From the NCBI GenBank assembly GCA_965261125.1, contig CBDHCS010000006.1, positions 461,446 through 525,445 on the forward strand: a stretch of DNA of 64,000 nt, read 5' to 3'. A program made the translations under genes and the position numbers. The notes beneath the pieces were generated by a model. The model was not told the DNA's origin, ran no database searches, and saw nothing but the letters and a program-made list of their open reading frames with translations. Below are positions 25,345-49,930 of the stretch, piece by piece (the first letter of the stretch is position 1; each line of letters starts with the position of its first letter). The stretch is from Candidatus Poribacteria bacterium. Lineage in GTDB: Bacteria; Poribacteria; WGA-4E; WGA-3G.

Positions 25345-26310
25345 TTAATTATACACTTTTATGATTTGTTCAATAGATGTTTCAGGGTTGTATTGATATT
25401 GTCGCTTAATGTTAGCGAAATCCTTCTCAATTGGGTTCAACTTCGGAGCATACGGGGGTAAAAATAGCAAACTCACACCCGTCTCTGTAATCAACCTTGC
25501 TGTCTCTGAACTCTTGTGGAAGGACGCATTATCCATAATGACAACGTGTGTCTCATCAAGCAAAGGACATAACTGATGCTCTAACCACGTATTGAAGGCA
25601 AGCACATCAGAGGCACCTTGAAAAAGCACAAGGGCAGTAAAACTATCTCCGATGTGTGCTGCAATCAAAGTGGTAGATGCATACCGATGCAAACCCGATA
25701 TTTTATCTTGGATACAGACACCCTTCGGAGCATAAGCATACCGACGCAGTTGTGGAGTCGGAAAACCGCTTTCATCAACATAAACAGGCGTTTTACCCCC
25801 GACTTGAATTTCACGATCAAACGCATCAAGATAGGTTTGGCGTTTTTCTGGACACTGTTCTTTATACGTTAGCGTCTTTTTTTCGCGTGATGTTGAGTTT
25901 CCCGAGGGCATACTAGTGCTTAGTCAAGTGTTAATTGATAGGTCTTGAAAGGAATCGGGAATCGGAGTTCCCTCCTACCATAGGCAGTCTATCGGTAGGA
26001 GCGATCTCCGAATCGCGACCTACAATAATATGTTGACAAAGCACTAGATACAGTTCTTGGAAACGCCGAAATGTGTAGCCCGTTCCATCTGTGTGTGGTC
26101 GGGAAAATCAGCAACATGTTGCTTCAGGGCATCGTAGTCGAGCCGATGAGGACCTCGGGGTCCTGGCTTTTTACAACTCAAAGGTGCTTCAGCAGCTAAT
26201 CAGTTATAGATGCTGGTCCGAGAGACGTTATAGGTGCGTGAGGCTTCCGCTTTACTACCATTATGAACAAAATCAAGCACGCGTTTACGTAAATCTGATG
26301 AATAACTCAT
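25345..26310 (-). pseudogene. IS630-family transposase, disrupted (orfA nonsense + MITE insertion before the DDE domain)
   Basis: orfA (26310 downward) reads MSYSSDLRKRVLDFVHNGSKAEASRTYNVSRTSIYN-TGA-LAAEAPLSCKKPGPRGP. The expected Trp codon TGG is TGA. A MITE-B copy at 25913-26052 separates it from orfB (25345..25911), which carries the DDE domain ...VYVDESGF... Confidence 0.7.
25913..26052. repeat. MITE family B copy inserted inside the IS630 transposase gene
   Basis: 28-bp TIRs ctagtgcttagtcaagtgttaattgata / the reverse complement of caataatatgttgacaaagcactag. The core gggaatcggagttccctcctac ... gtaggagcgatctccgaatcgcgac is an imperfect long palindrome. It is flanked by ATA on both sides. 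Confidence 0.6.
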
Positions 26311-26587
26311 AAGACTTAGAGTTTCACATAAAATCAACAATGTGTCAACTTATTTTTCGACTTTACTATAATTCACTGCTTGTGTGGAAATGTAATAGAC
26401 ATTATAATGATTTAATTTGCATTAAGGTTTACCGAGTGTCTCGGATCTCTTGAGTTCCGTAGGGACTAAAGAGCATATCCACTAATAAGGAAAACTCGCT
26501 GAATATTGGACTTATGTGAAACAATGTCGTACAATAGATTATTTTAGAATTGTTATAATACATTGGAACTTGCACAACAATAACGTT

Positions 26588-27331
26588 TCAATTGATCTTT
26601 ATGCAATCGTACCATCGGAGTGTCCGCTTTCCTTTTCGGCTTAGGACACCAGGTTTCCGTTCGACTGGGAAACCGAAGTCGCGATCTTTCTGTGTCAAGA
26701 CATTCCAGTCGGGTGGAAACCATGTTCGGAGGGTTTTACAATGCACTTCAAGGTTTTCACCTTCCCATCCACCGGTTTTGTAATACATGGGACAAACCCA
26801 TCTCTCTCTTCCGCGAGCGTACTGCCGCCATCCCATCACAGAGGCTTGTGATCGGATAATGTTGCCGTCGCGCCAATGCCATTCAATCCCGCTCCAAGGA
26901 TAACCTATTGTGCCAGTACCGCGGTTAATTTCACTCCATCCCAGATCATCGTGGAGCGTAATATAAGAAACGTTTGTGCCCCAAGGTGTTTCGTCGTTGG
27001 CAAATCCCCATTTCTGTCGTCTGTACCAATGTAACGCTCCTGGAATTCGTGACTTGGATACAACAGCGTTCTCAATGGTTTCTATAATGTCAAAAAAACC
27101 TCTATTGTTATAAGGATTATGCACACCCTCACAGAGTGTTAAGGAGTTCACTTCAGGACCGAACCACTTTCCGTTTTTACCGGGTGTTCTATAATATGCG
27201 CCTGATGCTGCAGGTTCAGCGCGCTCGCTTGAATTCAATTTCGCCTTTGCAAATGTGCTCCCAAACATCACACCTAAAACTGCTAATAGCAAAAAGACGT
27301 TAAAAAGTATATCTAAATTTTTTCGTAACAT
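26588..27331 (-). CDS. secreted hypothetical protein (paralog family 2; C-terminal CPMYYKTG motif)
   Basis: Signal peptide MLRKNLDILFNVFLLLAVLGVMFG. The C-terminus WVCPMYYKTGGWEG...WYDCIKIN is shared with the frameshifted paralog at 34144-34870. Confidence 0.65.
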   Translation of the reverse strand: MLRKNLDILFNVFLLLAVLGVMFGSTFAKAKLNSSERAEPAASGAYYRTPGKNGKWFGPEVNSLTLCEGVHNPYNNRGFFDIIETIENAVVSKSRIPGALHWYRRQKWGFANDETPWGTNVSYITLHDDLGWSEINRGTGTIGYPWSGIEWHWRDGNIIRSQASVMGWRQYARGRERWVCPMYYKTGGWEGENLEVHCKTLRTWFPPDWNVLTQKDRDFGFPVERKPGVLSRKGKRTLRWYDCIKIN

Positions 27332-27342
27332 TGTTTTTAGGG

Positions 27343-28026
27343 TTATTCTCGTTTCAGATGTCCCCATGTTGTTGTCAATTTTCGTTTTGGTGATACCGCA
27401 ATCCCGGAAATCGTAACCTCACCTACCCATGCTTCGCCTGTGCTCGCTCTATCTGTAACATACGCTACAAGGACAAAACCGATAATATCAATTTTCGGTA
27501 AGTTCGCGTCTCGAAAATCCATGCGCGATTCGCCATCACCAAACAACTGAAATCTGCCTCCATCAAAGTGCAGCATCATTTCGTTAAGGGTATCTGTATT
27601 CCAGCGTTTGCCGGGACCGAGAAACACTTTGCCATCTCTTGATGCTTGCATATCATTTGTGAAAAATAGGTAATACCCTGTCTCCTCTACTTCCCCATTG
27701 TCATTTAAGAAATGTTTTCCAAGTGCAATGCCGAATTTAATATCATCTGTTGCGCCGATGTTATTCACTGTAATTGTAAAGGTGTCATAAAGTCTGGGGA
27801 AGGCTATAAATTGGTAAAGTTCAAATATAGTTTGCCACTGTTTTTGCGTCTCAATTTTTGTCTTTAAAAACCCCTCCTCAATCTGCCATATAGAGTCACT
27901 GCCTTGTAGTTGCCAGTTGCCTTCTATTTCTTGATCAAAGTTATCTTGCCACGTAACTGCAGCTGCGATTCCCTGTAAAACAGTGAAAGCAAAAATCGTG
28001 ATGAGTATTCTAAAGACGTTTGTCAT
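27343..28026 (-). CDS. secreted hypothetical protein, paralog family 1 (C-terminal ...KLTTTWGHLKRE)
   Basis: Signal peptide MTNVFRILITIFAFTVLQGIAAA. W-x-IEEGFL and the C-terminal tail are shared with the genes at 30538, 31423, 33227 and 37998. Possible distant DUF1080/LamG-like fold, not verifiable here. Confidence 0.65.
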   Translation of the reverse strand: MTNVFRILITIFAFTVLQGIAAAVTWQDNFDQEIEGNWQLQGSDSIWQIEEGFLKTKIETQKQWQTIFELYQFIAFPRLYDTFTITVNNIGATDDIKFGIALGKHFLNDNGEVEETGYYLFFTNDMQASRDGKVFLGPGKRWNTDTLNEMMLHFDGGRFQLFGDGESRMDFRDANLPKIDIIGFVLVAYVTDRASTGEAWVGEVTISGIAVSPKRKLTTTWGHLKRE

Positions 28027-28107
28027 ATTTTCATTGGTTTGAGGATTAGGAATTCGATCAGGTATGCATGACACAAAAACCTGTACCGCAACATATCAGA
28101 GATTTCT

Positions 28108-28359
28108 TTAGGTTCTCTGCCAAGCAATTTTTAATATTTCGTTAGCGTAATCCTGCCCAGATGTTGGCAAAGGTAGGGTTTTACCCTCATGTTGGTATTG
28201 CTCAATTATCTCCTCAACGATGTTACACAATTCTGAAAAACCCTTTTGTTCGTCATCGCCGTGGCATCCACCATAAAAGAGACCTGGACAACTACCAACA
28301 TAACACTGATCTTCATCAGACCATTCGACTATTTTTACGTAACGGGTACTTAGTTTCAT
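28108..28359 (-). CDS. HicB-like (UPF0150) antitoxin-family protein, no HicA partner seen
   Basis: An 83-aa protein ...VEWSDEDQCYVGSCPGLFYGGCHGDDEQKGFSELCNIVEEIIEQYQ... It resembles the HicB N-terminal RNase-H-like domain. Confidence 0.4.
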   Translation of the reverse strand: MKLSTRYVKIVEWSDEDQCYVGSCPGLFYGGCHGDDEQKGFSELCNIVEEIIEQYQHEGKTLPLPTSGQDYANEILKIAWQRT

Positions 28360-28395
28360 TTTAGTTTTTTATAAACAACACACGGCGTGTGCCTA

Positions 28396-30492
28396 CTACT
28401 TTGCAAATGGTGTGCCATCTGCTTTTCCCAAATAGATATGATGTACGTCATCACTACAAACTGGAATTGTAACTTGCTTCTGAATATGGACACGCTGATA
28501 TGTCTGTGGGCCTTTTTCGAATACCGACTGGACAGCATGGATGTTTAACAGATAACGTTCCTGCGTCAAATTTGAAAACGAAAATTTGCCCTGCGCGTCT
28601 GTTTCCGTTTCAAAGCGGTCTAAGGTCAAGGACATATCATATTGGCTTAGTTCCCACGGATACCACGAACGCGATACCAAAGCATTCTGCACAGGTTTGC
28701 CTGTCCCTTCCCAAAGCACTTGTCCCTTTATCCCTAATGTTGGTTTATCTGCAACGATGAGTACTTCTTCACCATTTGTAGATGCTTTCACGTTCATTTC
28801 AGCTGCAGCAATGCCATCTCCCGTAATATAGAGTTTATACTTTTCCTCAAAGAGACCATCCAATACGAAAGTCGTCTCTGTTACAGGAAATCGTTTGGAC
28901 AGAAGCGGTCTGTTCAAAGTTCGCGGATTCAGAGCTGGTTCCATTTTAGCTTTCTCAGGGAATATCTTCACCTCATAAAACCCATTTGATGGAATATCTT
29001 TTGGGAGAATGACACGTCCGTTTATAGCATACCCTTTTTGAAGCGGAACAATCAACGGTTCATTTCCGATTTTTACATTTGGGTAGCCCCTTGAAAGATA
29101 ACCTTTTTTGGACACTTCAACAGACAGGAGATGTGGCTTTGTCTCCAATAGCTGCATTTGAAAAGCACCGTTTGCATCCGTTTGTGTCATCGCTAAAAGT
29201 GCGTCGTGTCCGTGTGGGCTTTCGCTGCGTCGCGCTGCATAGAGATTTGCTTCTGCAATGGGTTTCTGCTCTGCATCAATGACCGTGCCTTTCAACGTTT
29301 GCATTTTTGGCAAGCGGATTTTAAGCGGTTTTTCGCTTTGTGGGTTGACCGACTCCAGAAATGCAATGATAACATTATTATGAGAAATTGTCAAGCTGTA
29401 TTCAATTGGATGGAGTTCAGAAAAGAGAAAATTGCCATCCGCATCGGTTTGCACAATATGTTCGGGTTGTGCTCCAGCACGAAAGAAGTCGGCAGCCTTG
29501 TTGTGCATCTTTAACTGCACCTTGAGTTCATCAACTGTGTAACCTGAGTTTGAAGCAGTAACTTTGCCTTGCAGTGAGAGGAAAGGTTTCAGTGTAAGTT
29601 CACCTAAATCGTATACATTTTTGTCTGGAGACATCTCCCATCGCCAATGGTGCGTTTGGTACTGTGGATGCAATGCTATTACCGTAAAGGCGTAATAGAT
29701 ATCGGAATCATTTGGGACTGTTAGATGGAATTCTCCATTCGTGTTTGTCTCTGTAGGGTGTGCAAACGTACTGCCAGGATAGACGGTATCCTTCACTTCG
29801 GAAGCTGCACGGACAGTAACGCCAGAGATAGGGTTTCCACTTTCAGCATCAACGAAAACACCAGAAAGCGTTGCCCCCGGTTTTAAAAATACTTCTATGC
29901 CGCCGACATGGCTCCCAGGATAAACTGGCATTATAAGTGAGTCGGGTATCGCGAAGACATAGCTATCAAAAGCATCTACAATAACGTATCGCCCCGACAA
30001 CAGATTTTTGACCTCAAAATATCCATTAGATACCTCACCTGGATATGCTTTTTCTATCCACTTACCGTCAGAAGTGAGAAGTCCAACTTGGACTTCACCC
30101 GTTATCGGCAGCGGGAGTTTGGTAACGGAATCAAGCAGAAATCCCGAAATAATCCCTGTGCCTTCAACGGTAAAATCGGCTTTAACATCGGTCTCTTCAG
30201 TAACGGTAACTTCGCGTTGTGCAAGTAACGTGCTGTAATGCCGAATTTTCACATCCCAAGTGCCAGCAGGAAGACTCGTGAGCGTAAACTGCCCACCCAA
30301 ATTTGTTTTGGCAGCGTAAGTTATGTTGTCTGTTTGTGAGACTGCTGAGATGGTGTAGTCGGAGAGTGGGTTGTTTTGGTTATCTGTGACCTGTCCCTGA
30401 ATTGTGCCGACATTTTGAGATTGGCAAATTCCGATGGGAGTACCGAAACATAGCAGAAACAGAGCGACATAAATAAGGGTAGTGTTGTACAT
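28396..30492 (-). CDS. secreted protein with multiple carboxypeptidase-regulatory-like (CarboxypepD_reg) beta-sandwich repeats
   Basis: Signal peptide followed by repeated units of the form GTIQGQVTDNQNNPLSDYTISAV...GGQFTLTSLPAGTWDVKI (G-x-V-x-D...G-x-Y pattern). Length 698 aa. Confidence 0.65.
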   Translation of the reverse strand: MYNTTLIYVALFLLCFGTPIGICQSQNVGTIQGQVTDNQNNPLSDYTISAVSQTDNITYAAKTNLGGQFTLTSLPAGTWDVKIRHYSTLLAQREVTVTEETDVKADFTVEGTGIISGFLLDSVTKLPLPITGEVQVGLLTSDGKWIEKAYPGEVSNGYFEVKNLLSGRYVIVDAFDSYVFAIPDSLIMPVYPGSHVGGIEVFLKPGATLSGVFVDAESGNPISGVTVRAASEVKDTVYPGSTFAHPTETNTNGEFHLTVPNDSDIYYAFTVIALHPQYQTHHWRWEMSPDKNVYDLGELTLKPFLSLQGKVTASNSGYTVDELKVQLKMHNKAADFFRAGAQPEHIVQTDADGNFLFSELHPIEYSLTISHNNVIIAFLESVNPQSEKPLKIRLPKMQTLKGTVIDAEQKPIAEANLYAARRSESPHGHDALLAMTQTDANGAFQMQLLETKPHLLSVEVSKKGYLSRGYPNVKIGNEPLIVPLQKGYAINGRVILPKDIPSNGFYEVKIFPEKAKMEPALNPRTLNRPLLSKRFPVTETTFVLDGLFEEKYKLYITGDGIAAAEMNVKASTNGEEVLIVADKPTLGIKGQVLWEGTGKPVQNALVSRSWYPWELSQYDMSLTLDRFETETDAQGKFSFSNLTQERYLLNIHAVQSVFEKGPQTYQRVHIQKQVTIPVCSDDVHHIYLGKADGTPFAK

Positions 30493-30537
30493 AAGGCTTG
30501 CGTTTTCTCACTAAGTGTGGACCTGGACTTGGCACAA

Positions 30538-31338
30538 CTACTGACGCTGCTTGAGTTGCCCCCACGTCGTTGCTAACTTGGCTTGCGGGGAAACGGATAA
30601 CCCCGGTCCCGATATCTTGAATGAATCCACCCATGCATGTCCAACTCGAAGTCCATTCCCAATCACGACAAACCCAAGAATCTCAACAGAAGAAAATTCA
30701 GGGTCTTCAAAATCAGCACGTTTTTCACCATCAGCGAACCACTGAATATGCCCTTTATTGAAACGTAGTTCCATGGACTCCATTTCTTTAGTCTGCCAGA
30801 TAGTATCGGGATTACGAGGTTCCCGCCCAGACGACTTGCCAAATGCCACACCTCCTCCATCCCAGATGTCAAAACGTACGGAATATGATATATGCATTAG
30901 AAACAGATAGAAAAATGGCCAATCTCCAGGGAGATCGGGGAACCGTCTCCCGATCGCGATGCCAAAACTCCCTTGCGTTTTACGTATGTTTTTTAAGATA
31001 ATTGTGAAGTTTTCGTATCCCGGATTTTTTATCTGTCTCTGAATTAATTCTCCACCTTTGATGCCATCAAAATCTTCATAAGCACCACTGGAATCTTTGA
31101 ATTGGAGTAGTTCTATTGTAGGTCTTGCATCCCCGCCGAAATCGGGTGGTGACTGTATCCATTCCTTTAAAAAGCCGTCTTCTACTTTCCATATAGTATA
31201 TTCGCCCCAATGTTCCCAATTTTTCTCTTTCAAAACGTTAAAATTGTCTTGATAACTTTGTGAAAAAGCGGATGGAGAAAAAATATCGGATACAAAAAAT
31301 AACGTAATGCCTGTTAGAATAAGTATGATATGCTTCAT
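30538..31338 (-). CDS. secreted hypothetical protein, paralog family 1 (C-terminal ...KLATTWGQLKQRQ)
   Basis: Signal peptide MKHIILILTGITLFFVS. It carries WKVEDGFL, GFGIAIGRRFPDLP and FEDPEFS..IGFVVI motifs shared with the 33227 paralog. The conserved C-terminal tail is present. Confidence 0.75.
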   Translation of the reverse strand: MKHIILILTGITLFFVSDIFSPSAFSQSYQDNFNVLKEKNWEHWGEYTIWKVEDGFLKEWIQSPPDFGGDARPTIELLQFKDSSGAYEDFDGIKGGELIQRQIKNPGYENFTIILKNIRKTQGSFGIAIGRRFPDLPGDWPFFYLFLMHISYSVRFDIWDGGGVAFGKSSGREPRNPDTIWQTKEMESMELRFNKGHIQWFADGEKRADFEDPEFSSVEILGFVVIGNGLRVGHAWVDSFKISGPGLSVSPQAKLATTWGQLKQRQ

Positions 31339-31422
31339 GTTACAACTTCCTTATCTTATAGTAAAAACCAATTACCTTACAATGGCGAGGTTAGGAAACC
31401 TCGTCAGCGAGTTTGACTCTGG

Positions 31423-32196
31423 TTAGAATCGCTTCAAATCTCCCCAAGTGGTCGTGAGTTGTGTACCTCGTAATTGTACAGCAAGATTACGTTTAGTAAT
31501 TGCTTTATCAGAAATTGAAATACTTGAGATCCTGCTACCAAACCACTGTCCTCCGACGTGACAGGTAATAAGCAATCCCACAATATCAATGTTTTTTAAG
31601 TTCTCATCAATGAATTCAGTTATCAGATCGTCGTTTGTATATACCTGAAAATGGCCAGTATTAAAAACAGCTGTAAGATCACGTGTCGTATTTTGGAATA
31701 TGTTCCCATACCACGCTTTCGTCTTTCCTCTATTAAATTTTCCCTTCTCTGAAATGGTAACTTTACTAATCTCTTCGGGACTAACGATATAGCCCTCCAC
31801 TGTTAAGTCAGGATCATCTTGACGTTTCCCGATAAACAAGCAGAGTTCCCCCATACCATCTTCTCCTTCCTGTGGATAAGTTATCTCTTCACCTACTATT
31901 GTTAACTGTTCAAAGTTAACATTAATGATTTTCCAGTGCAGGAAATCCGCTGTGTTCTCATCACATATTGGAGGGAGTTCACCGGCGTTCCGGATATTGG
32001 CAAAGAGGAAACCCGCAACAGCTTCCCATTTTGCGTTCCGAGGATTTCCCTGCCTAATTCGTTCCCATCCTTTGAGCCCCTCATCATCAAACGAGTCGTT
32101 CCATACCTTAGCGTAACTGTGTCCACTCAAAAGAACACTTAAGAGTAATAAAAATAAAAATCTGTGAATACCTTTTAAAGTTTTGATTCTCATCAA
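31423..32196 (-). CDS. secreted hypothetical protein, paralog family 1 subgroup b (C-terminal ...QLTTTWGDLKRF)
   Basis: Signal peptide MMRIKTLKGIHRFLFLLLLSVLLSGHSYA. The body aligns with the 37998 gene (ADFLHW..., FDTGKFQ/FNTGHFQ, LITEF). The conserved C-terminal tail is present. Confidence 0.75.
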   Translation of the reverse strand: MMRIKTLKGIHRFLFLLLLSVLLSGHSYAKVWNDSFDDEGLKGWERIRQGNPRNAKWEAVAGFLFANIRNAGELPPICDENTADFLHWKIINVNFEQLTIVGEEITYPQEGEDGMGELCLFIGKRQDDPDLTVEGYIVSPEEISKVTISEKGKFNRGKTKAWYGNIFQNTTRDLTAVFNTGHFQVYTNDDLITEFIDENLKNIDIVGLLITCHVGGQWFGSRISSISISDKAITKRNLAVQLRGTQLTTTWGDLKRF

Positions 32197-33275
32197 AGTT
32201 TACCTCTCTTTTGGCGGGGATGTTCACTTTTTGCGGTGCGAATCAACCCGTAGGCCGGAATAGTAATCGGTAACGATTCTGCTGTAGTTAGTACTTTGAT
32301 TTCTTCGCGCAGCAGTTCAGGCGAGTTTTCCACTTGCCAAAAAACCTTGAACCGTTTTTCTTGTTGTGACTGCGCGTTGTAGGCGTGCAAGGATTGTGTC
32401 CAATCGTCTGGTGCAGTAACCCGCAAATAGTCAGGTACCTGAATACTGAGTACCTTGAAATTCTTTTTCGCAGAAAGTGTGAACTCGGCAGATGGGTTTG
32501 CGTCTTTGTCTACTGCACCGTAGGAAAGGGTTTTCGGTTGCACCGTCACGGGGCGCACGATTCTCGCAGTAATAGGCAACGACAAGGTTCGCTCATTTGG
32601 AAAAGATACGGTAAGCATAGCAGATAAAAGTTTTTCAGCAGTGTCCGGTTCTAATTTTTTCGGAGCCCGTAACTGAATTGTAATGAGGTAGCATCCCGAA
32701 TTCGGATCTGGAGACATTTTCCAAGTCAGGTTTGGATGCGCTGATGGTATGAGTCGGACTTCCTCTAAATTGAGTGGCGCGTTTACACACAGTTTAATTT
32801 TCTTTTTATGTGTCGTTTCAGATAGTACCTGTCCGAAATCGCATATATCAGCACTCAGCGTTGCGAACCGTTTTGCGGTAGCAACAATTGTTAGATAAAC
32901 TTGTGGGGTTCTTGGGCTATCTGTGAAAAGGATCGCTGTTGCCGCTTTTGCATCAGTTGGAACAATTTTGGGGTTAAGCACAACCTCAAACGTTCCTTCC
33001 TCGTTGGGCTGAAGCAGTTTTGGTCCGGTAATTTTTGCATAGCTACACCCTGCTCGAATTCTTTCTATTCGCAGTGGACTTCTTCCCGCATTTTTCGCTG
33101 TCACTGAACGTGTTACGGTCCCCTCCCATTCAGGGATTGTCCCGAAGTTGACTTTATCTTGCGTAAAAACTAATTCTCCAGGGAACTCCTGCTGGTTATT
33201 AACGATCACAATAACCACTACCGAAATCAACAGAACCGGAATGATGATTGTTGTAATAATGGAACGTTTTGACAT
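32193..33275 (-). CDS. membrane-anchored DUF1573-like (ASPM/SPD2/Hydin-type beta-sandwich) protein
   Basis: N-terminal TM helix IITTIIIPVLLISVVVIVIV. The motif FGTIPEWEGTVTRSVTAKNAGRSPLRIERIRAGCSYAKI fits the DUF1573 pattern (G..L.I..v...C). Confidence 0.5.
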   Translation of the reverse strand: MSKRSIITTIIIPVLLISVVVIVIVNNQQEFPGELVFTQDKVNFGTIPEWEGTVTRSVTAKNAGRSPLRIERIRAGCSYAKITGPKLLQPNEEGTFEVVLNPKIVPTDAKAATAILFTDSPRTPQVYLTIVATAKRFATLSADICDFGQVLSETTHKKKIKLCVNAPLNLEEVRLIPSAHPNLTWKMSPDPNSGCYLITIQLRAPKKLEPDTAEKLLSAMLTVSFPNERTLSLPITARIVRPVTVQPKTLSYGAVDKDANPSAEFTLSAKKNFKVLSIQVPDYLRVTAPDDWTQSLHAYNAQSQQEKRFKVFWQVENSPELLREEIKVLTTAESLPITIPAYGLIRTAKSEHPRQKRGKL

Positions 33276-34048
33276 AATGTTACTTCGTGCCTTTTATTTG
33301 TCCCCATGTAGTTGTTACTTTGGCTTGTGGCGAAACGGCAAGTCCTGGACCCCGCGATCGTAAACGAATCTACCCATCCACTCCCAACATGGACTCCATC
33401 TGATATTACCATAAACCCGATGATCTCAATAGGTGAAAACTCGGGGTCTTCAAAATCAGCGCGTTTTTCATTATTCGCAAACCACTGAAAATGCCCCCTA
33501 TTAAAACGAATTTCCATGGATACTAGCTCTCCTGTGTCCCAGAAGGTGTCAGGATGACGCGGATCCTCCTCGCCCCACACATTCGGCACAGACCACTTGT
33601 AAGCTTGTGTCTGTATGCCATAGGTAAAAAAAATATAGAAATACGACAGATCGGGCAAGTCGGGAAACCTCCGTCCAATGGCGACACCAAAACCCGCAGT
33701 ACGTTTTGAACCCATATTTTTAACAGTAATTGTGAAGGACTCATGCCCCGGTTTTTTTTTCTGTCTCTGAATAAAGCGGTTATCAGCGAAAAATTCGAAG
33801 TTCTCGTAGTTGCCTGGAATTCCCTTAAATTGGAACAATGCAGCATTAAAGTCATTCGGTTGTATTGCTGCCCTTAAAAAACCATCTTCAACTTGCCAAA
33901 CAGAATTGTTCCCCCAAAGTTCCCAGTCATCTTCTTTCAAATCATCACCAAAATCGTATTGAAAACTGTCGGCAGATGCGGATAGAGACAAAACACTCAA
34001 CACAACGATTAACGCAGGACTTATCCAAGTTTTTGCGATCTGTTTCAT
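33227..34048 (-). pseudogene. secreted paralog family 1 member with C-terminal frameshift (conserved tail displaced to +1 frame)
   Basis: In frame, the body ends ...WVDSFTIAGSRTCRFATSQ.... A 1-nt shift near gcggggtcc (about 33290) instead gives ...GPGLAVSPQAKVTTTWGQIKGTK*, matching the family tail. The start MKQIAKTWISPALIVVLSVLSLSASA is at 34048. Confidence 0.6.
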
Positions 34049-34143
34049 GAAACACCTCCTTACTTTTACGTCATTGGTAAAAATGCAATGGTAAAAGATA
34101 TAAACCCTCTTCCCATTGCTTGAAAAGGTTGAAACTTTCAATT

Positions 34144-34870
34144 CTAATTCAACTCTATGCAATCGAACCAAGTTCCTTCAAATGATCCTTGTAATACTTC
34201 CCGACTTAGTATTCCCTCATGAAATTCAGGATCCCCAAAATCACCATCCACTTCTTTTGCGAATTTTAGGGATAATTGGGTACGATTAGGTCTATAAACC
34301 CAGGTACCTGTTTTGTAGTACATCGGACAGATATATCTCGTGCCATCATCTTCGGTATGCTTTCTATACCCTGTCACATCGGCTGAGCCTGTTACTATGA
34401 GGGAACCCTCGTCACTTTCATGTATTTCGTATCCTGCCCAAGGATATCCAACATCAGTACCAACACCATCACTAATATAATCCCATTTAATATCGCGGTT
34501 GAGAGAAATGTTGGAGTAAGTGGTTCCCCATGGAGGGGCATCATGGTTTGTGCTAAAAAGCCAAACTTGATATCGATTCCAAATGACAGTACTTGGCTTT
34601 GATGATACTAAAATATAAGCACACTCATTTGTGAATATGATTTCAAAACCTTGGTTCCAGTCTCCACCGTTTAAAGTGGTGTTATTGATTTCTGGTCCGA
34701 AGAACTTACCATCCTTACCGGGATCTCTGTAATAATCACCAGATTCTTCTGGATAAGCGGTTTCTAAACCAGGAGTTATTGCAGAATCTTAAAGAAAAAG
34801 TGAAAAAACCGATTGACAAAACCGCAACAGGAAGTAAAGCGGTCAGGATTAAATCTAATGGTTTGCGTTG
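34144..34870 (-). pseudogene. paralog family 2 member, frameshifted between signal peptide and mature domain
   Basis: Frame A reads MRKQRKPLDLILTALLPVAVLSIGFFTFSL... then a stop. Frame B continues ...ESGDYYRDPGKDGKFFGPEINN...YICPMYYKTGTWVY...WFDCIELN*, homologous to the 26588 gene. The shift lies in a T-rich tract (ttttttcactttttc). Confidence 0.6.
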
Positions 34871-35006
34871 TTTACGCATTGTTTTATCCTCCTAAATAAT
34901 TTGGTATAGTTTCTAAAGGATTCAGAAACTGACATATATTTTGTATTAAATCGCTTTTTTTGTCAAGCAAAATTTCGTGTTTTTTTGTAATAAATATTAG
35001 TTGCAA

Positions 35007-37881
35007 TTATTCTAATATAGACTTACCTCGTTCCCAGGAGTCTTTCAACTTCTTTTCATTGCTTGAAAAATCGTGCTCCCGATATTTTGGATCGGGTTGG
35101 GTTGCATCGGGATAATCAATTTTCCAGAGTCGGAAGCCTTCAGATTCACATCGCAATTCAGAATTAGTGTCATATATCAATGAAAAACCTGGGATTTCCT
35201 CTAAAAAGAGATATAACCTCACTGTGAGTAAACGTGCAGCCTTTGCTGAAAGATAGAATGCTTGCGATTTTCCTTCTGCTTCGTTCCGATAAACAACCAC
35301 AGAACCGGGAACTCCTTTTTTCTCATGACTGATGTGTGATGTGCCAACCCGAAATTCTGAGGGTGGTAGCGAAAATTTTCCATCTTTGGTTACACCATGA
35401 ACTTTTGATGTCCAAGTATCACTGTCGGATGTAATTGAGACACCTTGCAGCATCCATTCCCCAGGTGGATAGTTCTTTCCATTTAACGAAAGCGTATCCA
35501 TGGGGCGAGGGTTGTGTGGAATCATGTCTGTTTGTTGAACTGAAGGTGACACTTGTTGACTTTGAACTGGCATTAGAAAATGAACAGAGGCAACACGGTC
35601 AAACGTCTCATCAGATCCTATATACGTAATACCGTCAAGTTTAAGGAGTTCGTTTGTCGTTATCAATAGATGCGTAACGTTGTGTGTTTTTAAAAATGTA
35701 AGAACTTCGGTAGAAGATGGATCACTAAAAACATGACGTGCAAACATAAATATCCAATATGGAATATAGTGGTCTGAATCAATAACGGTTGCTCGGTTAG
35801 CAAACCAGTGTATCTTACTTCCGTAATCCCACCATGCGGCTATAACTGCGTTTTCATCTGTATGTTTTGCAATATTGTTAAGTTGTGTGTTAAACTTCAA
35901 TGATGCAGGAACTACTGTATCACGGACCGTCTCGGTACTTGAACGAACAAATCCTTTGTGCAGCGGGAAGGGAGCAGGATTAAAAACGCCACCTACGAAA
36001 AAAACATCTGAACTTGTGAAAAGGATGAGAATACACACAGTCGCGAGGCAGCCAAACCTCTGGAAATGGGATATCTTAAGTCGTGCCAACTTGTACAGCA
36101 GCAAAATCCCGAAAAGTGTACACGGGACCGTCAAGCCAAGAAAAATCCACCCTATGAAACTACCTGCAGTAGATAGACAATATCCGATATATAGTTCAGA
36201 AGCTACGATAAGACTTATTACGCACAATTCTGTTGGCACGGTTCCGAATACAGGCCCTTGTGCTTCAGTCTGCTCATAAGAATCACTCTCAATCCGCTCC
36301 TTCATACATCTGCGCAGGACCTTAAAAATTAGCAAACTCACCAATACGGAAAACACGGGATCAATAAAAAAGAGATAACGCACTGCGCCACGGCTGCTGG
36401 CGAGTCCAACAAAGATCTATATTAACACCAATAAGGACTTATTATTGCCATGGTGGTCTCCTTTTCGAAGGATATATGCTACGCCTATTGTAATCCCGCC
36501 CACCAAAAAGGAAAGTCCAAAGATACTAAAAGAGACATCTGAGTTTGTAAGGAAAAGAGAAAGGAGAGTACCACAAAGCGCGATTTCAAAACCGACAAGA
36601 GTTAACCAAAAAATGACGCGCTCTTTTGAGAAGAAATTGTAAACTAATACACCACAACCTGCCATTGCTGCCAAACCTACAACTGAATAGTTACCGAGAA
36701 ATTGGATGCCGTTTAAGTTCTCAAGTTCTGAAACAGTACGCATAAGCCGATTCTGGCCTAATGGTGAGACAAAATTGTCAAACAGTCGACGTATTGTTTC
36801 CTCAATATCAGGTGATTGTAACAGAGTTAGGCCCGCCAACAGGAACGTGGTGATAACACAACCGAGAAGGCATCTATGGATGTTGCTGTAACTTGAGAAT
36901 TCCAGCAAACGTTTCCATAATGAAACGGGTTTTTCTGCTTTGGTAGTTTTTGAATTATCCTTTCCAAAAAATGTGAGGTTACAGAAAAGGGTAATAGTTG
37001 GAATGACAATTGCCAAAAAAACATAAGGTGCCCAGATATTATGGTAGGTACGCGTAAATGTGAAAGCAAGGACGGTGAAGCAGAGATACCAGGTAACGTA
37101 AAGTGATGCACTTTGACGAGAAAAACGTCCTCGCAGTACACGGACAATGATCCAGATAGAAAGTATAACTATCGCGAGGCCTACCCCTTCCCAAGAAAGT
37201 GCGATCAATCCTCCAGCAATTCCTGATACAGCTGCATAAAAGTAACTTATCGGTTTGCCAACTGATGTTTTAGAGGTGGTAACAGAAGATGACTTTGGTT
37301 TTGGCAGAGCAGATTCTGCTTTCAGATAAAACAGAAACATAACCAACCACAACAATAGGACGAAAGCATCTCTGTCGGCAAAACCGGCGGCGGAACGATG
37401 CAGATTCAAGGAAGGGAAAATTGCAGTAAAATTGACAGCAAGGAGTGCAATGGATGTATCAAAAACATGCCGCCAAAGAACGTAAAGTATTAACAGACAT
37501 AGCACGTAACACAATAGGTGCATACGCCGCGACCGCGTAGAGGCTAATGTTTGGAAAAACCGAATGCAGAAAGTGATATGTGTAGGCAAGGACATAAGAA
37601 AAGAGATTAAGAGAAGTTGATAAATCTCTCCCTTCCAATTGCCATCGCTGCGCGTCTAAATCTGGCAAACGTCCTTGGGAAACAATCAGATCGGCTTGGC
37701 GAAGAAAACGATAGGAATCTGTGCCGAGTAGATATGTTTCTTCCAAGCGCGGCAGATTCGCTGTTCGGACAAATACACAGAGAAGTAGCAAACTGCTTAA
37801 TAGGCATAAAAGCACAGCAGACAAGACTGACTGTTTTATCCACCGTTGACAGAACATCCACATGTTCGCAAGACACTTCAA
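35007..37881 (-). pseudogene. STT3/AglB/PglB-type oligosaccharyltransferase homolog, split into three ORFs (one frameshift, one in-frame TAG)
   Basis: ORF 37459..37881 has the N-terminal TM plus GTDSYRFLR (DxD-type loop). ORF 36417..37595 is polytopic membrane core. ORF 35007..36383 has AAWWDYGSKIHWFANRATVIDSD (the WWDYG catalytic motif followed by the ANRxT pattern of STT3). ORFs 2 and 3 are in the same frame, separated only by a TAG followed by IFVGLASSRGA. ORFs 1 and 2 overlap in different frames. Confidence 0.65.
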
Positions 37882-37997
37882 TGATTCACACCTCTAACAT
37901 TTTATGAAGCGGTAGGTTGTATTTAAAATATATCTTCGGTCAATACCTGTTTAATTTGAAAGGAACGTATAAGAAATTTCGTGTGTTTTAGCTTTAT

Positions 37998-38890
37998 TTA
38001 GGGACGTTTTAACTTTCCCCAAGTTGTAGTTAACTGCCTTTCTCGTAACTGCACTTCTCGTAACTGCCTATCAAGAATATAGTATTGAGGGATACCACTG
38101 CCCGAAATAGAAAAAGTTGATATACTACCAGAAAAAAAACCACCTGGGGGTTCAAACACAGCCATCAAACCTACGGCATCGATCTTATTGATATCCTCAT
38201 CAAAAAATTCAGTTATTAGAAGGTCTTGTGTCCAAAGTTGAAACTTTCCAGTATCAAAAACCACCCTTATATTATCTGAAGTCAATCGGAACATGAGTTC
38301 ATAATCTGCTTTGACTTCGCCTCTTTTGAAGACACCCTTGGCGGAACATCGCATTTCTGTTGTCTTTTCGGGACTGAACATATAACCTTCTGCAAAGTCA
38401 GGGTCGGGGAGTCGTTTGCCAAGGAATAAGCCAAGTTCACCAGATTCATCATGGTGGCGAGCGGGGTGTTGGTGATAGATTATTTTTTCACCCATGACCA
38501 CTAACTTCTCAAGTTGAAATTGATGGGCATTCCAGTGTAGAAAATCCGCTGCTGTCACATGTTCTGCTTGTGGTTTCACAACATCAACACCGAGCCATCC
38601 AAAATCAGCATCAGGCCTTGTATCATCTTCGAATTGTCTCCATTCTACATGATAAGGCAACCATTCTACAATACGTTTCCACCCGTTGAATCCCTTTATA
38701 TCAAACTTTCTGACTAGCTCTCCGTCAAACTCATCCCTCCATGTATCGGCATGACTGGGTACAATTAGTGTAAGTACTCAAAAGTATTGCACAAGAAACG
38801 ATAAAAATTATATACTTTCTTATGCACGAATAAGGATTAGAAAATCTATAAGAACTAAAAATAAAACTTCTATTTCTCATAGAGCACCTC
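37998..38890 (-). pseudogene. secreted paralog family 1 subgroup b member (C-terminal ...QLTTTWGKLKRP), N-terminal frameshift
   Basis: Intact ORF 37998..38660. Upstream, a signal peptide (MRNRSF...IIFIVSCAILLS) sits in one frame and SHADTWRDEFDGELVRKFDIKGFNGWKRIVEW in another. The latter matches KVWNDSFDDEGLKGWERI of the 31423 gene. Confidence 0.55.
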
Positions 38891-39433: not shown

Positions 39434-40315
39434 ATGGATTTGATTATGATTATGGAGATGTTTCCTGATCAAGCGGCGTGTATCGCATATTTAGAGCAGC
39501 TGCGGTGGCAGGGATCCCCTGAATGTCCCCATTGTGAGTCTACTCATATCAACAAGCGCAATGAAACGGCTACAGGGCGTATCGGGCGTTGGAATTGCCA
39601 CGATTGTCATAGCACTTTCAAGGTTACGTCTGGCACAATGTTTGTTGGAACGCAGATCGCACTTCAGAAATGGTTTCTGGCGATCGCGTTGATGGCAAAC
39701 GCAAAGAAAAGTCTCTCAAGTTGTCAACTTGCACGCGATTTAGGATTGAAACAAAGAACAGCCTGGCGAATAATGATGTGTATACGTGCTGAAATGGGTA
39801 AGGATAACGTGTTGCTACAAGGTATCGTTGAAGCCGATGAAACCTATATCGGTGGCAGCAGTAGAAAAGATTACGACAAAGAGGAAGGTGAACCCCGTAA
39901 GCGTGGGCGTGGCACTGCGAAAGATGCCGTTATGGGTGCTGTAGCACGTGGCGGGAAAGTCGTAGCAGAACTTGTTTCGGATATTGCTGGGGAGACAATC
40001 GCTGACTTCATTATGAGGGTTGTCAACACCGAAGACGCTAAACTGTATACCGACCAGTTCAAAGGATACACCGAAATCGGTAAAGAGATGGAACATCAAA
40101 CAATCAACCGGAGTGAACAGTGGGTAGCTGATGGGATACATACCCATACGATGGAAGGGTTCTGGTCTTTCGTTAAACGTGCAGGGTATGGCTCACATCA
40201 TCATTATTCAACAGGTTACACACCACTGTATCTCGCAGAGGCGTGCTACAAATACAACTACAGAGGAACGAACATCTTTGCCAAGTTTCTCACAGAGAGT
40301 ATGGAGTCCGGGTAA
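39434..40315 (+). mobile_element. IS1595-family (ISXO2-like) transposase gene
   Basis: N-terminal zinc ribbon CPHCES...CHDCH. The DDE core VEADETYIGG is characteristic of IS1595 transposases. Upstream, a long hairpin (39349-39420) overlaps the RBS, and there is a 9-bp perfect palindrome attagggggttgtcaccccctaat. Confidence 0.75.
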
Positions 40316-43141: not shown

Positions 43142-44126
43142 GGTCAAAGACCTCCGAAAATACTTTCCGATACGAAAAGGAATTCTCCGACGGACCATCG
43201 GACATGTAAAAGCGGTGGACGGCATTAGTTTTGACGTTGAACGTGGCGAAACCCTTGGACTGGTTGGTGAAAGTGGTTGTGGCAAGACGACTGCGAGTCG
43301 GTGTCTCCTCCGATTGATCTCACCTACGGGTGGCAGTTTTACTTTCGGTGATGAACAAGTTGATTTAGCAAAGTTAACGCCTCAACAGATGCGCCCTTTT
43401 CGTAGGCGTATCCAGATGGTCTTTCAAGACCCACAATCATCTCTTAACCCACGAAAAACGGTGGGTGATATTGTTGGTGAACCGCTACGTGTTAATCGGA
43501 TTGAAAAAAGAAATGAACTGCAGGATCAAATTGTTGAACTTTTGGAATCTGTTGGGTTAAAACCGCAGGACATGCGGCGTTACCCGCATGCCTTTAGTGG
43601 TGGACAACGCCAACGTATTGGCATTGCACGGGCGTTAGCACTTAACCCCGAGTTAGTCGTAGCAGATGAACCGGTGTCGGCACTGGATGTATCCGTGCAG
43701 GCACAAATCCTCAACCTTCTGGTGGAATTGCGGGAGAAATTCCAACTTTCCTATATCTTTATCGCACATGATTTAAGCGTTGTTAAACATATCAGTGACC
43801 GCGTAGCCGTTATGTATCTTGGCAAGATCGTAGAGATTAGCGATGCAAAAACACTTTATCAATCGCCGAAACATCCTTATACAGAGGCGCTGATATCCGC
43901 TGTGCCGTTGCCGGATCCGAAAGTGCAACGTGAACGTGAACTAATTCGTCTTGAAGGAGATGTTCCTGATCCATCTCAGCCGCCAACCGGGTGTCATTTT
44001 CATCCGAGGTGCCGCTATGCAACAGATATTTGTAAACAGGAAAAACCAGAACTTCGTGAGATTACACCCGGTATCAAAGTTGCGTGTCATTTGAGTGAAA
44101 CGTTGGAATTACAAGGAGTTTCGTGA
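43125..44126 (+). CDS. oligopeptide/dipeptide ABC transporter ATP-binding protein (OppF/DppF-like)
   Basis: Walker [10 protein letters not shown], signature [15 protein letters not shown], Walker [13 protein letters not shown] and a C-terminal CxxC tail. Start [10 protein letters not shown]. Confidence 0.8.
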
Positions 44127-45073
44127 TGCCAAAATTAGATCAAATAACACCAGAAGAACTTGCATCTTGCAGGAAGCAGCTTGAGCGCCGTTGGAAAAGT
44201 CGAAAAGTTGATGCGGCGTTGCTGGAACGGGCATGGCATGTCGTTTATGAGATTGCGACACTACTCTATGACGAATTCGGGGCAACACAAGTTGCTGTTT
44301 TCGGGTCGCTTGCGGAACCGATCAATTTCACAAAGTCATCGGACATTGATATTGCGGTATGGGGACTCTCTGATAAGATACATTCATCTGCATATTGGAA
44401 AGTTCAGGATATTGATACGGGGTTCAAAATAGATTTGATTAATTTTGATATGATGAAAGGGTTTTTCCGTGAAAGAGTTAAACAGCATGCGATTCCTATA
44501 AGGAGAGGGGAACATCCCACATTATGGAAAACACAGTACGAACATCTAAACAAACAAGTTTTTCCAATCATGGAAGAAGAAGTATATGAAATGAACCGAA
44601 AAAAACTGACACAGCGTATCAACGATGAACTTGTAAAGATAGAGGATACTCTCACCAGAATCCGGAGAGGGTTAGAAAAAATTGAAATAGTGCCTGATGA
44701 TATCACAGAATTCATTGAAAATACGATTGCGACAGACCTTGTCGATATCTATAGTGGAATTGAACGGATTTTTGAGCGAATTGCCAACGAGGTTGATGGA
44801 CACTTACCGAGAGGGAGTAGATGGCATAAGAACCTACTTGAACAGATGACAAAACAACGCCCCGAAAGACCGCCTGTGATTTCTGATAATACGTTTCTCC
44901 AATTAGGGAAACTTTTGGAGTTTCGCCATAAAGTAACCAACATTTATGGGAGAGAACTGAAGTATGATAATACATTGGTGCATGCAGAAACAATCCATGA
45001 ATTGTTTGCAGCAGTTTCACAGGATTTTAATATCTTCACTGATTCACTTGTGCAGCATGAGGAGGACGTTTGA
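44126..45073 (+). CDS. nucleotidyltransferase (Pol-beta/MNT-type) fused to a C-terminal HEPN-like domain, paralog 1
   Basis: NTase motif FGSLAEPINFTKSSDIDIAVWG (GS...DxD). C-terminal R-x4-H (RGSRWH) and FRHKVTNIY motifs fit a HEPN-type helical domain. 4-bp overlap with the upstream ATPase gene. Confidence 0.6.
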   Translation: MPKLDQITPEELASCRKQLERRWKSRKVDAALLERAWHVVYEIATLLYDEFGATQVAVFGSLAEPINFTKSSDIDIAVWGLSDKIHSSAYWKVQDIDTGFKIDLINFDMMKGFFRERVKQHAIPIRRGEHPTLWKTQYEHLNKQVFPIMEEEVYEMNRKKLTQRINDELVKIEDTLTRIRRGLEKIEIVPDDITEFIENTIATDLVDIYSGIERIFERIANEVDGHLPRGSRWHKNLLEQMTKQRPERPPVISDNTFLQLGKLLEFRHKVTNIYGRELKYDNTLVHAETIHELFAAVSQDFNIFTDSLVQHEEDV

Positions 45074-45074
45074 A

Positions 45075-46043
45075 ATGCAACAGGCAGTAAACAGACAGCG
45101 AACAGCTAAAGAGATGTCACCAGAAGAACTTATGTCTTGTAGGAAGCAGCTTGAACGCCGATGGAAGAACCGAAAAGTTGATGAGGCGTTGTTAGAACGA
45201 GCCTGGTCCGTCGTTTATGAGATTGCGACACTACTTTATGATGAGTTTGGTGCGACACGGGTTGCTGTTTTCGGATCGCTGGCGGAGCCGATCAATTTCA
45301 CAAAGTCATCAGATATTGATATTGCGGTGTGGGGACTCTCTGATAAGACACATTCAAAAGCAAACCTCAAAATATGGGATATTGATACGGGATTCAAAAT
45401 AGATCTGATCAATTTTGATATGACAAAGGGACTTTTTCAAGAAAGAATCCTGCAAAAAGCGATACCTATAAAGAAAGGAGAACGCCCCACATTATGGAAG
45501 GCACTTTATCAGCATCTAAACCGCCAAGTTTTTCCTATCGTGGCGGAAGAAATATACGAAATGAATAGAAAGAAATTCACCCAACGTGTCAACGATGAAT
45601 GCATAAAAATTGAATCTACTGTTGATGCAATTGTAAAAGCTTTGGAAGATATTCAGGTTGTTCCTGCTAACTACAAACAATATATAGAGGAAACAATTGC
45701 CAATAAACTTGCCGATGTTTATAGAGGTATAGAGCGTATTTTTGAACGGATTGCTAATGAAGTAGATGCACATCTGTCGCGCGGAAGTAGGGGGCATAAA
45801 AACTTGCTTGAACAGATGACAAGACAACGCCCTGAAAGACCGCCTGTGATTTCTCAGGAAACGTTTCAACTTTTAGAAGCGCTCTTAGAATTTCGTCACA
45901 AGGTTAACAATATCTATGCGGATGAACTAATTTATGAAAGGACAGAAGAGCATGCAAAGAACATCGAAAAACTGTTCCGGAGTTTCTCTGATGACCTCAA
46001 AATGTTTACCGATTTTCTTTCACAGCCTAAGGAAGATGATTGA
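45075..46043 (+). CDS. nucleotidyltransferase-HEPN fusion, paralog 2 (tandem duplicate)
   Basis: About 75% identical to paralog 1 across the NTase motif (FGSLAEPINFTKSSDIDIAVWG) and the C-terminal RGSRGH / FRHKVNNIY motifs. ATG at 45075 (MQQAVNRQ...). Confidence 0.6.
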   Translation: MQQAVNRQRTAKEMSPEELMSCRKQLERRWKNRKVDEALLERAWSVVYEIATLLYDEFGATRVAVFGSLAEPINFTKSSDIDIAVWGLSDKTHSKANLKIWDIDTGFKIDLINFDMTKGLFQERILQKAIPIKKGERPTLWKALYQHLNRQVFPIVAEEIYEMNRKKFTQRVNDECIKIESTVDAIVKALEDIQVVPANYKQYIEETIANKLADVYRGIERIFERIANEVDAHLSRGSRGHKNLLEQMTRQRPERPPVISQETFQLLEALLEFRHKVNNIYADELIYERTEEHAKNIEKLFRSFSDDLKMFTDFLSQPKEDD

Positions 46044-49689: not shown

Positions 49690-49930
49690 TCAAGGTATTG
49701 TTTTCAGTATATTATATAACGTATGTTGATGTGATACTCACGACGGCTGAAGCCGTGTGCTTCTTTTGCACACAACTCTCCTTTGTGATTCCTGCTTCCG
49801 TCTCTCGTGCCTCTATCCTGAACTGCGTGAGGTCTTACTTGGACTCCACAGGCGTAACTTTCCGTCTATCCGACGGTAGTGGGTTTTAGGTTTATTGCAG
49901 CGTTGCTATCTCTGTCTATAGATATACCAC
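49690..49930 (-). ncRNA. putative TnpB-associated omega-RNA / IS right-end region (hairpin-rich)
   Basis: On the minus strand the tnpB 3' end plus downstream about 170 nt contain several stable hairpins (ccgtc-tatcc-gacgg; gtgtgc-ttctttt-gcacac; cacgacggc-tgaa-gccgtgtg). This is the expected location of a TnpB guide-RNA scaffold. Confidence 0.3.

Follow-up and report, generated by a model that had tools for sequence, protein, structure and literature searches.

The oligosaccharyltransferases (OSTs) that come closest to the gene described here are eukaryotic STT3 (yeast Stt3 and human STT3A/STT3B), the long type of archaeal AglB (AglB-L of Archaeoglobus fulgidus) and bacterial PglB (Campylobacter and Desulfovibrio). 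STT3, which attaches sugars to proteins in eukaryotes and archaea, belongs to the polytopic membrane glycosyltransferases of the GT-C fold and has its WWDYG domain in the periplasm. In characterised OSTs, the Asp of the WWD motif contacts the +2 Ser/Thr of the sequon. To our knowledge, work on STT3 homologues of bacteria has dealt almost entirely with PglB from Campylobacterota and Desulfobacterota. According to Lombard (PMC4973528), the STT3 tree holds only a few bacterial homologues. In our study, a stretch of 64,000 nucleotides from Candidatus Poribacteria bacterium (assembly GCA_965261125.1, contig CBDHCS010000006.1, positions 461,446 to 525,445 of the forward strand; the whole stretch is called the window below) was found to contain an STT3/AglB-type OST homologue on the minus strand, from nucleotide 35007 to 37881. 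The open reading frames (ORFs), the Pfam matches and a full-length alignment to intact Poribacteria orthologues describe it as a pseudogene of about 958 codons once repaired. We consider, with a probability of about 0.75, that the region encodes an STT3 homologue of the Poribacteria type and that its gene was inactivated recently.

The gene was found as three fragments on the minus strand, namely ORF1 (37881-37459), ORF2 (37595-36417), and ORF3 (36383-35007). ORF1 and ORF2 overlapped by 137 nucleotides in different frames. ORF2 and ORF3 shared one frame and were separated by a lone TAG (36417-36419), followed by the presence of IFVGLASSRGA and then a GTG. An earlier note on this DNA had joined the three ORFs into one gene, and its coordinates, the overlap, and the single TAG were all confirmed. 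It had also proposed that intact orthologues should be sought; these were found in Poribacteria, with a length of 950-975 amino acids and up to 84% identity. The joined translation of about 958 amino acids aligned over 100% of these intact proteins, a coverage by concatenated ORFs that is far beyond chance.

Three lesions were found in the gene. The start codon ATG was changed to ATTG, which left TTG (37879-37882, minus strand); the seven orthologous loci that were compared all contained CATGAAG, whereas the window contained CATTGAAG. This lesion was absent from the earlier note. At codon 125, two nucleotides were missing from a GTGTGT run (37509-37513, minus strand), as seen in the DNA alignment to the orthologous locus L001 and in the protein alignment. 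The orthologue contained ..GTGGTGTGC.. at this site whereas the window contained ..AT--TGTGT.., and most of a conserved Cys codon was removed; in a fuller view of the ORF1/ORF2 junction, ..GTGGTGTGCTAT.. of the orthologue was opposed to ..AT--TGTGTTAC.. of the window. When TG was inserted at this site, a single frame was obtained in which the TAG was the sole internal stop. The TAG occupied codon 489 (36417-36419, minus strand), where a Trp was invariant in 30 orthologues and was encoded by TGG in the closest orthologous DNA (L001/L002, OZ244616.1). The deletion at codon 125 splits the catalytic Asp of external loop 1 (EL1) from the remainder of the protein, and the TGG-to-TAG change at codon 489 cuts the WWDYG domain off from the catalytic core in the membrane. 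Because the start is damaged, two nucleotides are deleted, and a TAG stands in frame, the window copy is unable to make an active STT3-like enzyme as encoded.

The same sites bear on recoding, in which a functional protein would be made by a programmed frameshift and by read-through or reassignment of the TAG. The sole point in favour of recoding is that, apart from the lesions, conservation of the reading frame is perfect. TAG was found to be the terminator of 11 other long ORFs in the window, no suppressor tRNA was found in the window, and the orthologues contain a plain TGG in an uninterrupted frame. No slippery or stop-stimulated shift context was found at the deletion. TAG reassignment or read-through was therefore rejected; the TAG is an ordinary stop codon here, and recoding of the gene as a whole is so improbable as to be negligible.

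The gene belongs to the STT3/AglB/PglB superfamily (CAZy GT66), as the earlier note had claimed. The repaired protein matched Pfam STT3 (PF02516) with 55.1 bits against a cut-off of 24.5 (ORF2 alone, 45.8 bits) and Pfam STT3-PglB_core (PF21436) with 25.3 bits against a cut-off of 23 (ORF3 alone, 26.5 bits), whereas Pfam PMT_2 remained below its gathering cut-off (23.8 versus 26.1 bits). Among solved structures, the family profile matched yeast STT3 with 64 bits and also human STT3A/B and AglB of A. fulgidus; PglB was not recovered among them at E <= 0.01, and the relationship to PglB was visible at the fold level only. The branch is thus a divergent bacterial one, to which PglB is less close than the enzymes of eukaryotes and archaea. 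The best NCBIfam match was TIGR04154 (archaeo_STT3), the model of archaeosortase-A-associated AglB, where the orthologue P0001 (84% identity) scored 73 bits against a cut-off of 450 and was not a member; this low score explains why NCBI names the family members "hypothetical protein". An AlphaFold2 model of P0001 had a predicted local distance difference test score (pLDDT) of 77 and a predicted template modelling score (pTM) of 0.78. In a Foldseek search of this model against the PDB, the 19 best matches were all OSTs, and the next best folds were DPY19, ALG12, and PMT. The model contained a membrane core of multiple helices and a periplasmic mixed alpha/beta domain, as in the GT-C fold, with solved OSTs closest.

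Several motifs of the protein correspond to catalytic motifs of STT3 or are candidates for them. The EL1 motif GTDSYRF (37705-37725, minus strand) contained the catalytic Asp D55, which aligned to the Asp of FDPYF in FDPYFNYR of human STT3A and was invariant across 30 orthologues. A D..RxW...GR stretch aligned to FDDRAWYPLGR in the solved-structure alignments. The acidic DxD/DxE-type motif RSAAGFADRD (37368-37397, minus strand) aligned to RSVAGSYDNE of yeast STT3, with D171 and D173 placed against D166 and E168, respectively; the motif was invariant in the family, and both Asp residues in the 30 orthologues. TVSEL (36723-36737, minus strand) is a candidate for the SVSE/TIXE motif of EL5, an equivalence drawn from pattern and position. 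Its Glu lay in the loop between model helices 370-382 and 402-428 and was invariant in the 30 orthologues, as were two Arg residues beyond the TAG site. The WWDYGS motif (35817-35834, minus strand) was found in the periplasmic C-terminal domain, within the segment AAWWDYGSKIHWFANRATVIDSD of the translation, and its WWDYG aligned to WWDYG of yeast STT3. Thus a significant STT3 profile match and the alignment of the WWDYG context were both obtained, as the earlier note would have expected of an STT3. The ANRxT pattern after WWDYG, which that note had added to the catalytic signature, is not an established OST signature. By pattern and spacing only, VIDSDH (35769-35786, minus strand), with an invariant Asp, is a candidate for the DGGK/DNNT motif, and ELLKLDGI (35628-35651, minus strand) is a candidate motif of the DK type rather than the MI type.

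The Asp of WWD was not conserved throughout the family. Among 30 intact orthologues this position was D in 17, N in 4, G in 6, V in 2, and E in 1, and it was A in one further protein (P0008). The G variants made up one whole subclade, which also contained one of the two V members. The window copy keeps the canonical WWDYG. In Desulfovibrio PglB, variants of the motifs (WWDWG, DGGR, and NL) are found, and the WWD Asp is kept even in these variant enzymes (PMC12229607). The WWDYG region of P0001 (residues 678-718; window about 35780-35880) also gave a weak match to the NCBIfam/Pfam model HaoB_nitrify, with 24 bits, far below the cut-off. HaoB is a hydroxylamine-oxidation protein of nitrifiers, and the match hints that HaoB may contain an STT3-core-like segment.

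When compared with the known systems, the Poribacteria protein shared with eukaryotic STT3 the EL1 motifs (D-x-Y..R and D..RxW...GR), the DxD/E motif, and WWDYG, with TVSE as a candidate counterpart of SVSE; yeast STT3 was also its best match among solved structures. It differed from eukaryotic STT3 in its length of about 960 amino acids, in a larger beta-rich C-terminal domain, in an identity of just 12-16%, in the WWD Asp that is not conserved in the family, and in the broken state of the window copy. No homologues of other subunits of the eukaryotic OST were seen; the neighbours were instead DUF1573, MauE/DoxX, rhodanese, and CarboxypepD_reg-repeat proteins. Archaeal AglB-L is likewise a single polypeptide of about 870-970 amino acids with a GT-C core and a large C-terminal domain, whereas the Poribacteria gene is bacterial, does not stand in an agl cluster, and falls far below the cut-off of TIGR04154. 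A WWDYG-type motif is common to PglB and the Poribacteria protein, but the latter is about 250 residues longer, has no pgl-type locus around its gene, and contains, by pattern only, DSDH in place of DGGK and a possible DK-type motif in place of the MI type. Other GT-C enzymes (the DPY19 C-mannosyltransferase, the PMT O-mannosyltransferases, ArnT, and ALG12) scored lower than the OSTs and are without the WWDYG C-terminal core domain that the Poribacteria protein has.

The earlier note had left it open whether the gene was recently inactivated or whether the sequence was at fault, and of the two the former was favoured in our study. When the orthologous ORFs were used in tblastn, four consecutive genes of the window (33280-38880) were found to be broken, with six lesions in all. 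The lesions were of mixed kinds (a substitution, a 2-nucleotide deletion, and 1-nucleotide insertions) and just one of them lay in a G run. The best genome match to the STT3-like gene had 84% identity, and a scan of JGI metagenome data gave distant relatives only. The nearest relative of the locus that was found, L024, which was reached through the 90%-identity protein cluster of one window paralog, had 89-91% DNA identity over window positions 26590-33333. L024 was without window positions 33334-38004, which is the stretch of broken family-A, family-B, and STT3 genes (families A and B being secreted paralogs described below). Between the upstream paralog and the DUF1573 gene of L024 (7962-8043), a decayed family-A 3' end (..SPQAKLLTT*RQLKQ..) was found, and this relic marks a past deletion of the STT3 segment.

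Breakage of the STT3-like gene was also found elsewhere in the family, where at least eight other orthologues were broken at differing positions. The orthologue of L009 (OZ250160.1) was interrupted by an IS630-family transposase, and that of L011 was split into two ORFs. Further broken cluster members were P0316/P0315, P0317, P0318/P0314, P0319, P0020, and P0024, again with differing sites; the frameshift of P0020 lay exactly at WWDYG, and out-of-frame tails were found in P0316, P0317, P0020, and P0024, among others. The mixed lesions, the broken neighbours in a window that otherwise looks intact, the segment deleted in L024, the recurrent breakage, and the mobile elements that flank a cluster without rhodanese and MauE genes argue for real inactivation, and the lesions are probably true ones rather than assembly errors. 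The window copy kept 74 of the 76 invariant residues and all 157 of the 157 nearly invariant ones, and its pairwise ratio of nonsynonymous to synonymous substitution rates (dN/dS) was 0.19-0.25 as against 0.15-0.23 among intact orthologues. Since these residues are kept and dN/dS is not raised, the inactivation appears to be recent.

Some findings weigh against our reading of the gene and of the function of its family. The WWD Asp is not strictly conserved, its position being taken by D, N, G, V, A, or E in different family members, and the neighbouring proteins show neither enrichment of sequons nor a conserved sequon. The unrelaxed dN/dS fits very recent decay and an intact gene alike, and a locally poor consensus would likewise produce small indels grouped within 5.6 kb; the lesions are known here from the assembled consensus alone. 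The conserved residues and dN/dS are equally compatible with an assembly error, and a sequencing or assembly artefact was therefore kept as a rival. Under this explanation, the STT3 gene and its three frameshifted neighbours would be intact in the organism and the lesions would be consensus errors in a region made difficult by tandem paralogs or a mixture of strains. The indels are indeed all of 1-2 nucleotides, one of them falls in a run of G4 versus G3, and the paralog families could have drawn mis-mapped reads during polishing. However, the window has just one copy of the STT3 gene, in which three lesions are nonetheless found (among them a change of G to A and the loss of a dinucleotide), and the segment is cleanly missing, with a decayed relic left, in the closest relative found. 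The breaks in other orthologues come from other assemblies and lie at other sites, and an insertion sequence (IS) within a gene cannot be a base-calling error. Poor assembly across the whole window was rejected, because the next seven genes of the cluster (33278 down to 26591) aligned unbroken and 20 other ORFs of the window gave unbroken Pfam domain matches. Taken together, a local artefact is quite unlikely, and recent inactivation remains the reading that we prefer.

The family behind the pseudogene is large and uncharacterised. In a profile search of 1.84 billion representative proteins, 439 clusters (50% identity) were found at E <= 1e-30, and the best 150 of the 439 clusters (all with E < 1e-77) included many full-length proteins of about 850-950 amino acids. 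All named hits were Candidatus Poribacteria, and the 13 loci found in contigs of one genome per species were all from Poribacteria metagenome-assembled genomes. The earlier note had guessed a PVC-like lineage, which these hits and loci replace with Candidatus Poribacteria, a lineage not PVC (Planctomycetota-Verrucomicrobiota-Chlamydiota) in the strict sense. In the literature that was searched, no paper linked Poribacteria to STT3; the one paper in which Poribacteria and oligosaccharyltransferase are both mentioned deals, as judged by its title and abstract, with another subject. A second, shorter STT3-like family of about 640-790 amino acids was found in Poribacteria and related contigs (L019 18922-21090 and P0037-P0041); it contained the RSxAGFGDRD motif and was without a WWDYG-type motif.

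A DUF1573 gene nearly always accompanied the STT3-like gene, with orthologues down to about 25-40% identity. It was found directly before or after the STT3-like gene in most loci with enough flank, and within a few kb elsewhere. The DUF1573 protein contained an N-terminal membrane anchor followed by Ig-like domains, and among the four papers on DUF1573 that were found, as judged by their titles and abstracts, none dealt with OSTs. In one locus (L020), DUF1573 was fused to a Peptidase_C39 domain, and the pair of DUF1573 and STT3-like genes was present twice. The usual cluster partners (L001-L021) were a CarboxypepD_reg-repeat protein of about 700 amino acids, a rhodanese, and a MauE/DoxX membrane protein. 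In distant members, the gene immediately downstream was a GT2, which in one case had a GT2_TM_C domain as well, whereas no glycosyltransferase or flippase adjoined the gene in the window or in the closest orthologous loci. The sole glycosyltransferase found in the window was a GT4/GT1 about 20 kb away, and linkage to a pgl- or agl-type cluster was not found. The intact family and its conserved partner genes are undescribed. Judged from their sequences, the intact members would be STT3-fold enzymes with their own conserved partners and a relaxed WWD motif.

A multi-copy family of secreted proteins of about 250 amino acids surrounds the gene, all on the minus strand (27343-28074, 30538-31338, 31423-32196, 33280-34048, and 37998-38880). 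No Pfam match was found for these secreted paralogs. The family comprised more than 140 proteins, the named members of which were all from Poribacteria, and a C-terminal tail, SVSPxxKL[AT]TTWGxLK, was conserved in 76 of 120 homologues. A structural model of a paralog (pLDDT 83.5) resembled GH16 glucanases, legume lectins, and L-type lectins, which points to a ConA-like jelly roll. In the earlier note these paralogs were proposed as substrates of the enzyme. The neighbouring paralogs contained 16 NxS/T sequons against 16.2 in the shuffled expectation and 1 D/ExNxS/T sequon against 1.8; with no enrichment of either, the idea of sequon-rich substrates was rejected. Nothing in their predicted lectin/glucanase fold marks them as substrates, and glycan binding is at least as plausible a role for them. 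No conserved sequon was found in the alignment of the DUF1573 partner either.

From their membership in the family, the intact relatives may be expected to carry out N-glycosylation. Most likely their donor is a glycan linked to polyprenyl phosphate, and the glycan is transferred to an acceptor in the periplasm or at the surface, presumably the Asn of proteins. In the proposed mechanism, GT2 or other enzymes would load a sugar or glycan onto polyprenyl phosphate, and the STT3-like enzyme would transfer the glycan to a protein acceptor in the periplasm. The enzyme would work within a module of the DUF1573 Ig-domain protein, MauE/DoxX, rhodanese, and the CarboxypepD_reg-repeat protein. Because it has no conserved sequon, the DUF1573 protein would be a partner or adaptor rather than a substrate.

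It is also conceivable that the family is not an N-oligosaccharyltransferase at all but an STT3-fold GT-C enzyme with another acceptor (an O- or C-linked protein, a glycan, or a lipid), which would take its sugar from a polyprenyl monophosphate that the adjacent GT2 has loaded; in this case, too, the window copy would be a pseudogene. Intact members in which N, G, V, A, or E stands in place of the WWD Asp, including one subclade that consistently has G or V, are in line with such an enzyme, as are the GT2 (with GT2_TM_C, or other) just downstream in distant members, which recalls the ArnC/ArnT and Dpm1/PMT pairs, the neighbours without a sequon signal, and DPY19, ALG12, and PMT as the next best folds. 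However, OSTs were clearly the best matches in both sequence and fold, 17 of the 30 orthologues and the window copy itself had an intact WWDYG, and the EL1 Asp, the DxD motif, and the stretch resembling FDDRAWYPLGR were conserved as in STT3, as was the Glu of the candidate TVSE motif. Monophosphate carriers are also employed by archaeal AglB. We therefore regard another acceptor as unlikely, and N-glycosylation remains the function that we would assign to the intact relatives.

A more far-reaching proposal is that the intact relatives represent an undescribed bacterial glycosylation system. It would consist of an STT3-like enzyme that is less close to PglB than to the STT3 of eukaryotes and archaea, a DUF1573 partner, and a thiol-redox pair of MauE/DoxX and rhodanese, with non-canonical acceptor recognition because the WWD Asp is dispensable, and with repeated loss in sponge-symbiont lineages. 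The MauE/DoxX-rhodanese pair would be a counterpart of the oxidoreductase subunits in the OST of eukaryotes, and the candidate targets would be the lectin-fold proteins of the cluster or the surface protein with CarboxypepD_reg repeats. We offer this proposal as a speculative one, with little chance of being correct in full. If active, the family would extend what is known of protein glycosylation in bacteria, and new enzymes for glycoengineering could be drawn from it. In Poribacteria the gene has been broken or deleted repeatedly and independently, which clearly exemplifies gene loss that is still under way in sponge symbionts. The window copy is non-functional on our reading and in itself unremarkable, and it is the family behind the pseudogene that is worth experimental study.

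The three broken neighbours of the STT3-like gene were all secreted paralogs on the minus strand, and their lesions were located by tblastn and DNA alignment. The lectin/glucanase-fold paralog upstream of the gene (37998-38880) contained a 1-nucleotide insertion at about 38766, in the signal-peptide region. Just downstream, the family-B paralog of the CPMYYKTG.W type (34144-34879) contained a shift at about 34785, near codon 30, where the tblastn match was split. The family-A paralog (33280-34048) contained a frameshift near its 3' end (G4 versus G3, about 33350), which placed the TTTWGQIK tail out of frame. The remainder of the cluster, also on the minus strand, was intact. It contained the membrane-anchored DUF1573 Ig-domain protein (32193-33275; Pfam and alignment), followed by two family-A paralogs (30538-31338 and 31423-32196), which had signal peptides and the ..TTWGxLK C-terminal tail. 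These were followed by the CarboxypepD_reg-repeat protein of 698 amino acids, a member of the conserved module (28396-30492; Pfam), and, at the cluster end (26588-28074), by one family-B (26588-27367) and one family-A paralog (27343-28074).

The rhodanese and MauE/DoxX genes of the relatives were absent from the window cluster. At their site, an IS630-like transposase remnant was found, split into several ORFs (25345-26340, minus strand). The other flank of the cluster contained an intact IS1595-family transposase (39434-40315, plus strand; Pfam). A third mobile-element gene of the window, of the IS605 OrfB/TnpB type, was located at 49866-50942. Two tandem paralogous genes of about 315 amino acids (44123-46043, plus strand) had similar N-terminal regions, and the first contained a C-terminal HepT-like (HEPN toxin-like) domain. 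A PSCyt1/PSCyt2/PSD1 "planctomycete cytochrome" protein of 1028 amino acids (8284-11370, minus strand) was found near a sulfatase (12093-13553, plus strand). PVC bacteria and Poribacteria typically have such planctomycete-cytochrome and sulfatase genes, which probably explains the PVC-like guess of the earlier note.

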